Source: a virus (Duplodnaviria; Heunggongvirae; Uroviricota; Caudoviricetes). From it: a stretch of DNA of 14,385 nt. The notes beneath the pieces were generated by a model. That model did not search any database, had not been told where the DNA came from, and saw nothing but the letters and a program-made list of their open reading frames with translations. Below are positions 9,701 to 14,385 of the stretch, one piece after another; position 1 is the stretch's first letter, and the number at the start of each line of letters is the position of its first letter. The position numbers and the translations under genes were made by a program. Location: positions 1 through 14,385 of IMG/VR virus record IMGVR_UViG_2713896833_000003; one strand, given 5' to 3'.

Positions 9701-9713
9701 ATTACCCTTTAAA

Positions 9714-9752
9714 TTGCATATCTCGCAACAAAAACACTTGCATAATGCGCAA
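9714..9752 (+). promoter_or_regulatory. pL/oL-like region: two 15-bp operator-like sites TTGCATATCTCGCAA and TTGCATAATGCGCAA overlapping -35/-10-like hexamers
   Basis: Sites share the TTGC(A)-N5-(C)GCAA form with sites in the cI/cro intergenic region; TTGCAT and CATAAT hexamers present; lies between the cI terminator and the leftward gene block as in lambda. Confidence 0.45.
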
Positions 9753-10177
9753 CTTCATTTTATCTTTCTTTCCAGACAAACAAACAAGGTACTAACAAAA
9801 TTTGGTTGTAACACGGCGTATGGCACATGCGTCGTTAGCGGTCTGGGGACGTTAAAGGGGACAATCCACTCCTTGCTCGGGCAAACAAACCAGGTAGCCG
9901 GAATGTGCAAGTCAATGATGATGCTGATAAGACGCCTAACCAGCGTGGCGATTCGGTTTGACGCCTGGGAAGAGACCAGGGTGCAACGATGAGGGCATTT
10001 ATGGAGCCGCGACAAAGTGTGGTGCCGTAACTGGCTAAGTGCTCTCAGCGTTGTGGTAATCCGCGAAATGGCGCGGCGGTAAGTATGGCGGGGTTACTCT
10101 TTCCCCGTTGAGGACACCGGATTGTCAGGTTGACCATACGCCTGAGTGACAACCCCACCACAACAGCCACTGCTTTG

Positions 10178-10223
10178 GCGGTACCAGTTTGTACACTTGC
10201 TTCCGGCTGGTACCGCTCTTTTT
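10178..10223 (+). terminator. Intrinsic terminator-like hairpin inside the long leader (GCGGTACCAG-N19-CTGGTACCGC then TCTTTTT)
   Basis: Perfect 10-bp inverted repeat followed by a T-tract, about 140 nt upstream of the yfdP-like start. Confidence 0.5.
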
Positions 10224-10360
10224 ACAAAACAGAGAAGAGCATCACCGGACGACGGGCTCATAACCCAATCCATCCGGGCGGCTGCCACCGCAGGTGTTCT
10301 TCTCTGTTTTGTGGAGAAACCAACCGACCTTGCAGGGTCGATATGATGAGGAACAGCAAA

Positions 10361-10723
10361 ATGGCTAGCGAACGCAGTACTGATGTGCAGGCATTTATCG
10401 GGGAGCTGGACGGCGGCGTATTTGAAACCAAAATCGGCGCAGTTCTCAGTGAAGTCGCTTCCGGTGTGATGAACACGAAAACCAAAGGTAAGGTCTCACT
10501 CAACCTGGAAATCGAACCATTTGATGAGAACCGTGTGAAAATCAAACACAAACTCTCATATGTTCGCCCGACTAACCGCGGGAAAATTTCCGAAGAAGAC
10601 ACCACCGAAACGCCGATGTATGTCAATCGCGGTGGTCGCCTGACTATTCTGCAGGAAGACCAGGGACAATTACTGACTCTTGCCGGTGAACCTGACGGAA
10701 AACTACGCGCAGCAGGTCATTAA
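10361..10723 (+). CDS. yfdP: YfdP-like cryptic-prophage protein
   Basis: ATG at 10361 gives 120 aa (MASERSTDVQAF...), the length I recall for K-12 YfdP; the ORF track extension to 10130 starts at TTG and is Cys/Arg-rich, unlike a protein. Confidence 0.6.
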   Translation: MASERSTDVQAFIGELDGGVFETKIGAVLSEVASGVMNTKTKGKVSLNLEIEPFDENRVKIKHKLSYVRPTNRGKISEEDTTETPMYVNRGGRLTILQEDQGQLLTLAGEPDGKLRAAGH

Positions 10724-10788
10724 TATCGTTCTTAATTAACTGATTATTTATCTCATCACTGAATATCTTTATATAGTGAGGACTTATT

Positions 10789-11613
10789 ATGTCTCAGAAC
10801 TTAGACGCAACCGCAATTAATCAAATCCATGCCCTTATTTCTGCTCAGGGTGTTAATGAAATTATCAGTAAGATTGGTGCCGATGCTGTGGCATTGCCTG
10901 AGAATTTCCGCATTCATGATCTGGAAAAATTTAATTTAAATCGCTTCCGTTTCCGTGGCGCGCTTTCCACTGCCAGCATCGATGATTTTACCCGTTATTC
11001 TAAAGATCTTGCAGATGAAGGCACCCGCTGCTTTATCGATGCTGATAATATGCGTGCCGTCAGTGTGCTTAACCTGGGTACTATTGATGAACCAGGTCAC
11101 GCAGATAACACCGCCACTCTCAAACTGAAAAAGACAGCACCGTTCTCTGCCCTGTTGTCTGTTAACGGCGAGCGTAACTCCCAGAAGTCACTGGCAGAAT
11201 GGATTGAAGACTGGGCCGACTACCTTGTGGGCTTTGATGCTAATGGTGACGCCATTCAGGCAACAAAAGCGGCTGCGGCGGTCCGTAAAATCACGATTGA
11301 AGCAAACCAGACCGCTGATTTTGAAGACAATGACTTCAGCGGCAAACGCTCTCTGATGGAGTCTGTCGAAGCGAAAACCAAAGACATTATGCCAGTAGCA
11401 TTTGAGTTTAAATGCGTTCCGTTTGAAGGCCTGAAAGAACGTCCGTTTAAATTACGCCTCAGCATTATCACTGGTGATCGCCCTGTACTGGTTCTGCGCA
11501 TTATTCAGCTGGAAGCAGTGCAGGAAGAAATGGCTAACGAATTTCGTGATCTGCTTGTTGAAAAATTCAAAGACAGCAAAGTAGAAACCTTTATTGGTAC
11601 TTTCACCGCCTGA
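10789..11613 (+). CDS. yfdQ: YfdQ-like protein (DUF2303 family)
   Basis: 274-aa ORF with GAGGA SD 8 nt upstream; length and gene order match the yfdQ-yfdR-yfdS-yfdT block of the K-12 CPS-53 prophage (from memory). Confidence 0.65.
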
Positions 11614-11740
11614 TTTCATTACTGCAAATGCCCCTGCGGGGGCATTTATGGAAACGTAATTAACTCAATAATCACCGGATGGTGAGGGCTTCCTTTTACC
11701 CAAACTCAGCGCGGTGCAGCGCATATACGTGGAGAACAAA

Positions 11741-12277
11741 ATGTCATTTATTAAAACTTTTTCCGGGAAGCATTTTTATTATGACAAGATAAATAAAGAC
11801 GACATCGTGATTAACGATATCGCGGTTTCCCTTTCAAATATCTGCCGCTTTGCCGGTCATCTTTCTCACTTCTACAGTGTCGCCCAACATGCGGTGCTTT
11901 GCAGCCAGCTGGTGCCGCAGGAATTTGCTTTTGAAGCGTTAATGCATGATGCAACAGAAGCGTATTGCCAGGATATTCCCGCTCCACTGAAACGCCTTCT
12001 GCCTGACTATAAACGGATGGAAGAAAAAATTGACGCCGTAATCCGTGAGAAATACGGGTTACCCCCAGTTATGAGTACGCCCGTGAAATATGCCGATCTT
12101 ATCATGCTGGCAACCGAACGCCGCGATCTCGGGCTTGATGATGGCTCTTTCTGGCCTGTACTGGAAGGCATCCCGGCAACAGAGATGTTCAACGTGATTC
12201 CACTGGCACCTAGCCATGCCTACGGGATGTTTATGGAACGTTTTAACGAGTTATCGGAGTTACGCAAATGCGCATGA
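11741..12277 (+). CDS. yfdR: HD-domain phosphohydrolase, YfdR-like
   Basis: HD-domain motifs (HLSHFYSVAQHAV ... LMHDATEAY...D); ATG at 11741 with GGAG SD gives 178 aa; stop overlaps the yfdS-like start. Confidence 0.65.
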   Translation: MSFIKTFSGKHFYYDKINKDDIVINDIAVSLSNICRFAGHLSHFYSVAQHAVLCSQLVPQEFAFEALMHDATEAYCQDIPAPLKRLLPDYKRMEEKIDAVIREKYGLPPVMSTPVKYADLIMLATERRDLGLDDGSFWPVLEGIPATEMFNVIPLAPSHAYGMFMERFNELSELRKCA

Positions 12278-12630
12278 ATGTTTTCGAAATGGAAGGGTTT
12301 CTTCGCGGGAAATGTGTACCGCGAGATCTGAAAGTGAACGAAACAAATGCTGAGTACCTGGTACGTAAATTCGACGCGCTTGAAGCTAAATGTGCGGCAC
12401 TGGAAAACAAAGTAATACCAGTGTCAACTGAACTGCCACCAGCAAATGAAAGTGTTTTGTTATTCGATGCTAACGGAGAAGGCTGGCTGATTGGCTGGCG
12501 TTCTCTCTGGTACACCTGGGGACAAAAAGAAACCGGAGAATGGCAGTGGACATTTCAGGTCGGGGACCTTGAAAACGTCAATATCACTCACTGGGCAGTA
12601 ATGCCAAAAGCACCGGAGGCTGGAGCATAA
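12268..12630 (+). CDS. yfdS: YfdS-like protein (DUF551)
   Basis: 120-aa ORF overlapping the upstream stop; stop overlaps the next start (TAATG). Confidence 0.6.
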   Translation: MRMNVFEMEGFLRGKCVPRDLKVNETNAEYLVRKFDALEAKCAALENKVIPVSTELPPANESVLLFDANGEGWLIGWRSLWYTWGQKETGEWQWTFQVGDLENVNITHWAVMPKAPEAGA

Positions 12631-12935
12631 TGACCACTTTTACCGACAAAGAACTGATTAAAGAAATTAAAGAGCGTATCAGCAGCCTTGACGTGCGAGA
12701 CGATATTGAGCGCCGTGCTTATGAAATCGCACTCCTATCTCTGGAAGTAGAACCAGATGAACGCGAAGCTTATGAATTATTCATGGAAAAGCGTTTTGGT
12801 GACTTAGTAGATCGTCGGAGAGCAAAAAACGGCGATAACGAATACATGGCATGGGATATGACTCTCGGTTGGATCGTCTGGCAGCAACGAGCTGGTATCC
12901 ATTTCTCAACAATGTCACAGCAAGAGGTGAAATAA
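12630..12935 (+). CDS. yfdT: YfdT-like protein
   Basis: 101-aa ORF translationally coupled to neighbours on both sides. Confidence 0.6.
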   Translation: MTTFTDKELIKEIKERISSLDVRDDIERRAYEIALLSLEVEPDEREAYELFMEKRFGDLVDRRRAKNGDNEYMAWDMTLGWIVWQQRAGIHFSTMSQQEVK

Positions 12936-13285
12936 TGGAGCCATACAGCCTCACACTCGATGAGGCCTGTCATTTTCTCAAGATATCCAGACCGACTGCC
13001 ATTAACTGGATACGCACAGGGCGTCTTCAGGCAACACGCAAAGATCCCACTAAGAATAAATCTCCTTACCTCACAACACGACAAGCCTGCATTGCGGCTC
13101 TTCAATCTCCGCTGCATACTGTCCAGGTGAGCGCGGGTGATGGCATAACAGAGGAAAGAAAATGTCACTCTTCCGCAGAGGTGAAATATGGTACGCCAGT
13201 TTCACATTGCCGAACGGTAAAAGATTTAAACAGTCTCTTGGAACAAAGGACAAAAGGCAGGCGACAGAACTCCATGACAAGCTAA
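12935..13285 (+). CDS. xis: Excisionase-like (Xis/AlpA-type MerR-like wHTH) recombination directionality factor
   Basis: ATG at 12935 with GAGG SD 7 nt upstream; N-terminal [30 protein letters not shown] resembles Xis-type HTH; ORF track start at 12851 would lie inside the yfdT-like gene; 3' end overlaps int by 124 bp. Confidence 0.6.
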
Positions 13286-14325
13286 AGGCTGAAGCATGGC
13301 GGGTCAGCAAACTTGGTGAAATACCTGATATAACGTTCGAGGAAGCGTGTGTCAGGTGGCTTGAAGAGAAAGCACATAAAAAATCACTGGACGATGACAA
13401 AAGCCGGATCGGATTCTGGCTTCAACATTTCGCAGGAATGCAACTAAGAGACATTACTGAATCAAAAATTTATTCAGCAATGCAGAAAATGACGAACCGG
13501 CGTCATGAGGAAAACTGGAAACTCAGGGCAGAAGCATGCAGAAAAAAAGGGAAACCTGTTCCAGAATACACGCCAAAACCAGCGTCCGTTGCAACGAAGG
13601 CTACGCATCTTTCATTTATAAAGGCCCTACTAAGAGCCGCAGAGCGTGAATGGAAAATGCTGGATAAGGCACCAATTATTAAAGTGCCTCAACCAAAGAA
13701 TAAACGGATCCGCTGGCTGGAGCCCCATGAAGCACAAAGGCTGATTGATGAATGTCCGGAGCCATTAAAGTCTGTTGTTGAATTTGCACTGGCAACAGGC
13801 TTAAGACGCTCGAACATCATCAACCTTGAATGGCAACAAATAGATATGCAGCGCCGGGTGGCATGGATAAACCCGGAAGAGAGTAAATCAAACCGCGCAA
13901 TTGGCGTTGCGCTGAATGATACTGCATGTCGCGTATTGAAAAAACAAATCGGGAATCATCACCGTTGGGTATTTGTGTACAAGGAAAGCTGTACCAAACC
14001 AGACGGAACGAAAGCGCCAACAGTAAGGAAGATGCGGTATGACGCAAACACAGCCTGGAAAGCGGCGCTGAGACGGGCTGGTATTGATGATTTCAGATTT
14101 CACGACTTGAGACACACCTGGGCAAGTTGGCTGGTTCAAGCCGGAGTCCCGTTGTCAGTGTTACAGGAAATGGGAGGCTGGGAGTCTATCGAAATGGTTC
14201 GTCGATATGCTCACCTTGCACCTAATCACCTTACCGAACACGCACGGCAAATAGACTCGATCCTGAACCCATCGGTCCCAAATTTGTCCCAGTCAAAAAA
14301 TAAGGAAGGTACTAATGATGTGTAA
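13162..14325 (+). CDS. int: Tyrosine site-specific integrase (lambda Int family)
   Basis: 387 aa; N-terminal [10 protein letters not shown] arm-binding-type region; C-terminal catalytic motifs LRRSN (Arg), HDLRHTWAS (His-x-x-Arg), VRRYAHL (Tyr); stop codon lies inside the right direct repeat. Confidence 0.9.
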
Positions 14326-14385
14326 CTTATTGATTTAAATGGTGCCGATAATAGGAGTCGAACCTACGACCTTCGCATTACGAAT
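14322..14385. repeat. Right copy of the 64-bp direct repeat (att site)
   Basis: Identical to bases 1-64; overlaps the int stop codon. Confidence 0.9.
14340..14385 (-). tRNA. thrW: tRNA-Thr(CGU) 3' portion, truncated by the window edge; probably the intact gene continuing beyond 14385
   Basis: Reverse complement equals the tRNA-Thr 3' half ending in CCA; int lies next to it, the usual arrangement for the reconstituted tRNA junction. Confidence 0.55.

Follow-up and report, generated by a model that had tools for sequence, protein, structure and literature searches.

A DicF-type untranslated leader with conserved structured RNA modules in a lambdoid prophage of Escherichia coli

The CI RNA of phage P4 and the C4 RNAs of P1 and P7 are immunity RNAs that derive from leaders and are cut from early transcripts by RNase P, and a C4 family is included in Rfam. 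The pL leader of lambda reportedly contains nutL followed by an RNase III-sensitive hairpin before the N gene, and small RNAs (sRNAs) are also said to arise from the spacers of tRNA precursors, 3′ETS-leuZ of E. coli being an example. The put antiterminator RNAs of phage HK022 act in cis on terminators, which they suppress by way of the β′ zinc-binding domain. The put element is ~70 nt in length, has two stem-loops and starts at about position +3 of the transcript (PMC9378689). The dicF sequence, which encodes a cell-division sRNA, is part of an extended untranslated stretch; DicF RNA has a 53-nt form, which ends at a Rho-independent terminator, and a 72-nt form, which is produced by RNase III cutting of read-through dicBF RNA (PMC5069750; PMC9438474). 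In Qin, this system also involves RNase E processing, binding of Hfq and control of ftsZ and further mRNAs. Described here is a leader of the dicBF type, found at positions 9659-10360, between the repressor gene and yfdP of a lambdoid E. coli prophage. Positions refer to the window, which is the whole stretch of DNA analysed, 14,385 nucleotides in length (positions 1 to 14,385 of the IMG/VR virus record IMGVR_UViG_2713896833_000003).

The window displays 100% identity to a lambdoid prophage that adjoins tRNA-Thr and proA and is present in many E. coli genomes. The 9659-10360 leader is non-coding, and the region is almost certainly one of conserved, structured non-coding RNA. It is a new variation on the DicF-type leader, with at least one substantial, widespread and uncharacterised structured RNA, termed module A. 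Like dicBF of the Qin prophage, it belongs to the repressor-controlled early-left operon of a lambdoid prophage. The architecture is also that of dicBF, in that a conserved module B lies directly 5′ of a DicF-type hairpin and a long stem lies directly 3′ of it, in the position at which read-through dicBF RNA is cut by RNase III. The Qin locus differs in that three small open reading frames (ORFs), ydfABC, precede the region, whereas the region in the window starts at the candidate promoter. Qin also lacks ~250 nt of additional sequence (modules A and A2) found in the window, and its stem after the terminator is of another sequence. The principal elements are as follows.

9795-9984, plus strand: module A core, a five-helix structured RNA, from comparative alignment
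9990-10047, plus strand: hairpin A2, closing stem TGAGGGCA (9990-9997)/TGCTCTCA (10040-10047), variable interior
10050-10164, plus strand: module B, a cloverleaf-like RNA closed by helix H1, 10050-10057/10157-10164 (GUUGUGGU/ACCACAAC)
10174-10223, plus strand: DicF-family intrinsic terminator hairpin, 13-bp stem 10177-10189/10205-10217, U tract 10219-10223
10221-10315, plus strand: module C, long stem 10224-10243/10293-10312 of 20 bp (23 bp if the U tract pairs)

The DicF-type terminator and its flanking RNA modules

Window positions 10174-10190 are identical to nt 13-29 of DicF at 16 of 17 positions, and the alignment runs through module B into DicF. Module B itself shows 89% identity over 123 nt to K-12 Qin (locus L231, 2752-2874); the matching Qin sequence is part of an unannotated 340-nt gap between ydfC and dicF and ends 9 nt upstream of dicF. 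Most phages with module B carry DicF itself as the next sequence. At the sequence level, these alignments demonstrate that the window terminator is homologous to the 3′ Rho-independent terminator hairpin of DicF (RF00039), and that module B is the conserved sequence preceding DicF in K-12.

The window hairpin falls outside the DicF family proper, both by model score and by seed. The alignments reveal a gap of ~19-22 nt in the window at the place of TTATCAATTTTCTGGTGACG, which is present in Qin, Evi and others. The 5′ single-stranded seed of DicF, UUUCUGGUGACG, is absent from the window, and the hairpin loop also differs. Rfam 15 was searched at the gathering threshold with the whole window and permissively (E up to 10) with positions 9600-10450. 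Because the seed is gone and the loop is different, the DicF model gives no hit even in the permissive scan (gathering threshold 48 bits; the K-12 dicF control scores 76.7 bits). From these comparisons, the hairpin is related to, but divergent from, the terminator hairpin of DicF, and is not a DicF orthologue.

The hairpin has a folding energy of −21.2 kcal/mol (z −3.6), matched by none of 200 shuffles, and UCUUUUU then follows, to position 10223. The first-pass annotation, which was made from the sequence alone, had placed a strong intrinsic terminator at 10178-10223 and suggested that a long structured non-coding RNA may end there. The 13-bp stem bears out the terminator, and the structured RNA is supported and extended, as three conserved modules precede or follow the DicF-family hairpin. 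Covariation analysis of homologous leaders, named there as a check, reveals compensatory pairs in all three modules, and the Rfam scan, also named, assigns no family at threshold. That annotation missed the relation to DicF and dicBF, the association with tRNAs and the mosaic nature of the region.

The sequence CGCTCTTTTTACAA (10214-10227) resembles boxA, but consists of the terminator 3′ arm plus the U tract, and relatives carry CCGCCCTTTTTAC; the likeness is probably fortuitous. A boxA in the 3′ strand of A2 (TGCTCTC/TGCTCTTT) and in the terminator arm was considered and rejected, as the A2 strand covaries with its partner and the terminator arm varies in relatives.

Modules A, B and C are conserved as plus-strand RNA secondary structures. 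The G+C content of the region is 52-58%, against 33-43% in its flanks, and the folding energy of the region is better than that of shuffled sequences (z −4.3). Folding of module A or module B alone, as a single sequence, does not reach significance (z −1.4 and −0.8, respectively), and thus the support for these two modules is comparative. The helices of module A are:

9814-9822/9826-9834, helix P1
9842-9845/9891-9894, helix P2, which encloses the variable region V1
9911-9913/9947-9949, helix P3
9932-9935/9943-9946, helix P4
9964-9968/9976-9980, helix P5

Copies of module A were collected from viral contigs with exact-word baits, which gave 94 unique variants, and covariation was assessed in alignment A3, which has 17 diverse copies. 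An all-against-all screen for covariation, dominated by clade structure, was abandoned. In A3, standard pairs are present in 97.4% of cells and compensatory changes in 9 of 25 pairs, a result equalled by 0 of 500 shuffles; slid controls are 29-47% paired. Helix P2 displays perfect U-A to C-G covariation in 17/17 sequences, plus one G-C to A-U change. An alternative pairing for P2 from RNAalifold (columns 32-36 with 94-98) was rejected, since columns 32-35 with 87-90 covary perfectly in all 17. Conserved G-U pairs place the module A RNA on the plus strand, i.e. the strand of the pL operon. The strands that join the helices are near-invariant, namely GGTAGCCGGAATGTGCAAG at 9893-9911 and GGCGATTCGGTTTGAC at 9947-9962; with an independent bait, the 19-mer GGTAGCCGGAATGTGCAAG was found to be exact in 110 of 116 unique variants. 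With its covarying helices and long invariant joining strands, module A shows the hallmarks of a functional RNA.

The closing stem of hairpin A2 covaries in relatives when inspected by eye (GAGAGCA/TGCTCTC, AAGAGCA/TGCTCTT, GAGAGTA/TACTCTC and GAGCGCAC/GTGCGCTC). Its interior is swapped between lineages and is replaced in loci L022 and L299.

A CU-rich motif that resembles an anti-Shine-Dalgarno sequence, UYCCYUU, is found in the V1 loop of module A (9865-9876) and in the loop of the DicF-like hairpin (10192-10204). Loci L397 and L367 have an identical 13-mer, TTCCCTTGATGCT, in both loops, and L400 resembles a deletion that fuses the two copies. A 12-bp complementarity between the DicF-like loop of the window and GCCGGAAUGUGCAAG of module A was dropped, as by eye it is not shared by other clades.

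Inside H1, module B has four helices and a possible tertiary contact:

10061-10065/10072-10076, helix Ha
10077-10080/10116-10119, helix Hc
10090-10093/10103-10106, helix Hb
10122-10127/10147-10152, helix Hd
10083-10088 (GUAUGG)/10134-10139 (CCAUAC), possible loop-loop pairing

Alignment A4 (14 sequences) has 94.8% of its cells paired and contains six compensatory pairs (1 of 500 shuffles). The clearest changes are from P7, CGGU/ACCG to CGGC/GCCG and UUGUCA/UGACAA to UUGCCA/UGGCAA. The covarying helices are linked by near-invariant nucleotides. The loop-loop pairing is itself invariant, and is therefore neither backed nor contradicted. In Qin, an A2-like hairpin (AAGCGCAtGG.../...CCgTGCGCTT) precedes module B within the ydfC-dicF gap (L231 2674-2880). 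As this gap holds both elements, K-12 could serve as an experimental system.

Module C has a minimum free energy of −49.3 kcal/mol (z −7.7). Besides the long stem it contains the following inner elements:

10245-10249/10273-10277, inner stem
10278-10281/10288-10291, inner hairpin

Alignment A5, which has relatives from Kosakonia, Phytobacter and others, is paired in 94% of its cells, and compensatory changes are seen in 9 of its 29 pairs (0 of 500 shuffles). Taken by itself, the 20-bp helix has standard pairs in 95% of cells across relatives, and four of its pairs show compensatory changes. The predicted stem has the length of an RNase III substrate, i.e. about 20 bp or more of near-uninterrupted double-stranded RNA, and module C is probably an RNase III site. 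In Qin, the same position 3′ of DicF has a long-range stem, GAAUUUUGUGAUG/CAUCACAAAAUUC, detected through a sub-threshold STnc100 alignment. Between module C and yfdP are the following features, from folding and the RefSeq annotation:

10325-10340, plus strand: small hairpin
10348-10352, plus strand: Shine-Dalgarno sequence GAGGA
10361, plus strand: yfdP start codon

An equivalent hairpin and Shine-Dalgarno sequence are found in the relatives from Kosakonia and Phytobacter. The arrangement resembles that of the lambda pL leader, which is likewise structured and, shortly before the ribosome-binding site of the first gene, has a long stem of the RNase III type. Unlike lambda, the window has no N gene and no convincing boxA or boxB (a boxB hairpin was not sought systematically), its leader is about three times longer, and it contains a full intrinsic terminator.

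Mosaic distribution and the tRNA slot

A sensitive search of phage genomes reveals that parts of the region differ in distribution, and the leader is thus a mosaic. Positions ~9800-10056 are matched in phiV10, TL-2011b, P1/P7, SPN1S and Klebsiella phages; ~10050-10172 in phage Evi, PPompW and a phage deposited as an Actinobacillus phage; and ~10176-10360 in SfV, mEp460 and ST64B. The module A core is found in 1376 of 5426 complete E. coli genomes, and 256 of the places are on plasmids. In 25 sampled records, no feature is annotated under the module A match. A 16-mer bait in species-representative genomes gave mostly chance matches, 14 of the 120 returned loci being real by nhmmer; the hosts named are all Enterobacteriaceae (Klebsiella, Citrobacter, Kluyvera, Kosakonia, Phytobacter, Superficieibacter and E. 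whittamii).

At the gathering threshold the whole window has no Rfam hit; modules A, B and C match no family, and the C4 family is hit in neither the gathering nor the permissive scan. Among 14 related loci, only tRNAs are found at threshold; below it, there are a very weak hit to DicF (12.6 bits) and a weak one to Methylophilales-1 (29.7 bits, gathering threshold 79.9) in a Citrobacter insert. The three modules are not described in the searchable literature, where a 15-mer of module A occurs in no paper, although conservation flanking dicF may have been mentioned earlier by Faubladier and Bouche (1994).

Module A is associated with tRNAs, a genuine tRNA adjoining it in 44 of 115 unique contexts. 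A stand-alone cassette in phiV10 has, in order, a TTGACA promoter-like site, module A, A2, tRNA-Arg(UCU), a small hairpin, a DicF-like hairpin-terminator, a stem and a second terminator. The tRNA is genuine, as called by ARAGORN and by Rfam (73.3 bits). In phiV10-type loci (22 unique contexts), the tRNA-Arg(TCT) is situated between A2 and the DicF-like terminator and starts at the GTGG of GTTGTGG; the start of H1 in the window is the exact start of the tRNA-Arg acceptor stem in phiV10. Accordingly, module B fills the slot of a genuine tRNA in homologous cassettes. The tRNA programs do not recognise it: ARAGORN detects no tRNA or tmRNA in the window, and the Rfam tRNA model (RF00005) gives no hit at E up to 10. 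Module B was also tried as a tRNA at lowered ARAGORN thresholds, but the calls were inconsistent and are not trusted.

Other inserts are found at the same place. In near-identical leaders, the H1-enclosed insert is swapped for an unrelated insert of ~120 nt that has parts resembling acceptor, D and T arms, and in other genera there are further H1 inserts, some with a canonical GGTTCGAnTCC T-loop. H1, as seen in the window and in loci L010, L106, L055, L299, L291 and L004, serves as a fixed slot for interchangeable inserts of ~100-130 nt (module B, insert X, tRNA-Arg and others). A short sequence, AACCCAATC, recurs as well: it is inside module C in the window (10263-10271), directly after the H1 3′ strand (ACCACAACCCAATCACGCC) in the Citrobacter and Kluyvera copies, and present as a variant in Superficieibacter.

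As the DicF-like hairpin-terminator of the phiV10-type cassette is ~45 nt after a real tRNA-Arg, it appears to be a tRNA 3′ trailer that ends at the operon terminator. In this it is similar to 3′ETS-leuZ; the window differs in having module B, which tRNA detectors do not see, in the place of the tRNA.

Phage P7 has both modules, separately and unannotated in its record. An element like module B, but without H1, is the first after Op(ban)/Pban (L003 153-298) and is followed ~25 nt later by an intrinsic terminator. The module A core (L003 2497-2684), which adjoins tRNA-Ile in P1 as well, lies between tRNA-Ile and ban, within the C1-controlled ban operon. ARAGORN also calls a tRNA-Ser(TGA) at L003 1366-1452, which is unannotated in the P7 record. 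An intrinsic terminator thus follows module B within ~10-60 nt in the window, in Qin-type phages and in P7, and the sequence of the P7 terminator is unrelated to the others. The P4 CI and P1/P7 C4 RNAs are comparable in that they too are small, structured and embedded in an untranslated leader, that of an early operon under repressor control, and the P1/P7 modules A and B reside in another such operon, ban. They differ from the elements described here in that no sequence relation is found and no complementary target repeats are identified.

Coding content and the promoter region

The annotated genes that border the leader are:

8966-9658: XRE/cI-like repressor gene (RefSeq annotation)
10361-10723, plus strand: yfdP, the first annotated early-left gene (RefSeq annotation)

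In the RefSeq annotation, yfdP is followed in order by yfdQ, yfdR, a yfdS-like gene, yfdT, a xis-like gene and the integrase gene, and the opposite arm of the prophage carries a Q-family antiterminator. Between the repressor gene and yfdP (9659-10360), RefSeq/PGAP annotates nothing, also in the best-matching genomes, and the homologous gap in the K-12 annotation is gene-free as well. ORFs of at least 20 amino acids in 9660-10400 are all short, and a Pfam search of the gap ORFs gives zero matches. PHROG provides two matches, a minus-strand ORF at 10097-10288 to phrog_3651 (E 5e-38) and a plus-strand ORF at 10146-10343 to phrog_33599 (E 5e-17). Both frames are interrupted by stops and frame switches in relatives, K-12 Qin included, and for this reason the two families look like artefacts of ORF calling over a conserved RNA. 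The sole ATG ORF within the most conserved part begins at 9904; when the window is aligned with phiV10, the conserved downstream sequence is read in different frames. The yfdP frame itself is open upstream to a TTG at 10130, a span that includes the terminator and module C. This extension has no Pfam or PHROG match, and relatives L151 and L046 have indels there.

No N-like gene is found as the first gene of the pL operon, yfdP being the first annotated gene with no conserved ORF before it. The earlier opinion that the leader has no credible ORF and that no N protein is encoded has therefore held up.

The following sites precede the leader:

9714-9728, plus strand: operator-like 15-mer TTGCATATCTCGCAA, an exact match to TTGCRNNNNNYGCAA, putative OL
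9738-9752, plus strand: operator-like 15-mer TTGCATAATGCGCAA, an exact match to TTGCRNNNNNYGCAA, putative OL
9738-9766, plus strand: candidate pL, TTGCAT-17 nt-TATCTT, read by eye, with a predicted start near 9773-9775

A related site, TTGCTTAACGCGCAA, is found inside the cro-cI gap at 8931-8945. The two 15-mers fit operators, to which the repressor would bind. The first-pass annotation had read 9714-9752 as a pL-like promoter with operators; the operator-like repeats are present, with their relative in the cro-cI gap, but the promoter is not flagged by a consensus promoter scan. It had also proposed a second promoter after the terminator. A consensus scan of the plus strand at 10224-10360 detects no promoter-like site, and the stretch is filled by the conserved module C stem; that proposal has no support. 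In phages with other immunity regions (cdtI and Stx2c phages), the shared DNA begins at ~9794. The candidate promoter and operators thus appear to belong to the immunity module, and the leader from ~9795 is a separate cassette.

Outside the leader, mostly past the low-coordinate end of the window, the same prophage has a 3.1-kb metallophosphoesterase-family gene and a DNA methyltransferase gene in its late/accessory part (L001 1384-4527), which may be cargo or a defence module.

Expression of the leader and alternative readings

A model in which the region is a dicBF-type untranslated RNA cassette in the pL leader, either terminating or read through and processed, is favoured on balance, at slightly better than an even chance for the model as a whole. 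In the early-left (pL) transcript, positions 9795-10360 would form a 5′ portion that is not translated and that folds into non-coding RNA domains. After induction, RNA polymerase from pL would stop at 10223 or read through. A stop would release an RNA of ~450 nt, which would probably be cut at the tRNA-like module B in the manner of a tRNA precursor, the stable products being a module A RNA, module B and a 3′ hairpin of the DicF type. Read-through RNA would fold the 20-23 bp stem of module C, and cutting by RNase III would separate the non-coding RNA from the yfdP-T/xis/int message and set the 5′ end of that message. The terminator would in that case act as an attenuator, as at dicF, and N protein would not be needed.

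Several points weigh against this model. The pL assignment is weak. Termination efficiency, processing sites and RNA stability at this locus are all inferred. Processing of the RNase P type is speculative, since module B is recognised by neither ARAGORN nor Rfam and the P7 copy is without H1. The hairpin may be merely a terminator and no sRNA, considering that the Rfam DicF model fails and the seed is absent. Finally, modules A and B are left without a specific function in the model.

Perhaps module A and/or module B binds elongating polymerase, which would then resist the DicF-type and later terminators, and replaces N in the way that put does in HK022, with an unrelated RNA. The first-pass annotation had named an RNA-based, put-like mechanism among its options; positive evidence for it is lacking. 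This is considered unlikely, although several properties are suggestive: the N gene is absent while an efficient-looking terminator is present before yfdP-int, the long, invariant, unpaired strands of module A are as expected of a binding surface, and in P7 module B is first after Pban, before a terminator that must be passed if the tRNAs and ban are to be expressed. Module A is also near transcript starts: in the window ~40 nt separate it from the predicted pL start, and at the Kosakonia loci L250 and L274 it is only a few nt away from promoter-like sites of the TTGACA type. Like put, the RNA is cis-encoded near the pL of an N-less lambdoid phage and upstream of terminators, and may be a functional analogue. 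The architecture is nevertheless unlike the 70-nt, two-stem put, in that the window has ~40 nt of weakly structured sequence (9770-9812) and then the five-helix module A of ~190 nt. The HK022 record has no putL/putR annotation, and the segment taken to hold them (22000-32000) was located from the positions of neighbouring genes; blastn with word size 7 between this segment and the window gives only chance matches of 10-21 nt. Moreover, neither module always precedes a DicF-type terminator, Qin-type loci being without A and phiV10-type loci without B; module A of P7 is ~2.2 kb downstream of the terminator; and the phiV10 cassette looks self-contained and ends in two terminators. The more specific proposal that module A is a new class of cis-acting polymerase-modifying RNA, put-like in function but unrelated to put in sequence and fold, which allows passage of the DicF-type and later terminators, is a shade more doubtful. 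If true, it would explain distal early expression in the N-less lambdoid prophages of about one-fourth of E. coli genomes and in the C1-controlled ban operon of P1.

The dicBF-type model overlaps with, and is not excluded by, another reading, in which the modules are mainly stable RNAs that act in trans as regulators, sponges or anti-defence decoys and the pL leader position only provides early expression. As the principal explanation this too is unlikely. The sRNA DicF itself acts in trans (PMC5069750), the modules are found independently in phage types and operons that are unrelated (the P1 ban operon, phiV10 and lambdoid pL leaders), and they are associated with tRNAs. The UYCCYUU loops of V1 and the DicF-like hairpin would pair with the Shine-Dalgarno regions of target mRNAs; this anti-Shine-Dalgarno-like motif is common to both loops, with the 13 identical nt of L397 and L367 in its favour, but V1 of the window clade has the motif base-paired within a hairpin, and no target is identified.

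It is improbable that the leader is a riboswitch-like conditional attenuator, in which module B, or A and B together, senses a ligand, a tRNA, a protein or temperature and sets the frequency of termination. The covarying helices with near-invariant joints are reminiscent of aptamers, the position is that of a 5′ leader, and module B always has an intrinsic terminator ~10-60 nt further on, even the unrelated one of P7. By eye, however, no alternative (antiterminator) pairing in which module B would engage the terminator 5′ arm is common to the window, Qin and P7, and the replacement of module B in its slot by an unrelated insert or, in phiV10-type loci, by a real tRNA would be odd for a coupled sensor.

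One or more small protein genes hidden on the plus strand, or on the minus strand, are a very remote prospect: hypothetical proteins are annotated here in some phage records and the two PHROG families are matched, but the frames are broken in relatives, substitutions compensate within RNA helices, PGAP is silent in the best-matching genomes, the K-12 gap has no gene and Pfam is empty.

As a practical consequence, at least two PHROG families are apparently artefacts that come from translation of an RNA region. DicF is among the oldest known bacterial sRNAs, and yet the conserved folded RNA that surrounds it is in neither Rfam 15 nor the searchable literature. The DicF hairpin is one part of a larger, mobile cassette of RNA elements, which consists of module A, a slot for a tRNA or tRNA-like RNA, a DicF-type terminator and an RNase III-type stem. 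This cassette is common to lambdoid prophages, P1/P7 and phiV10-type phages, and is found in ~25% of complete E. coli genomes, O157 and O104:H4 strains included. If the modules control read-through, they would answer the question of how N-less lambdoid phages run the early-left operon. If they act in trans, they would be new phage regulatory or decoy RNAs.

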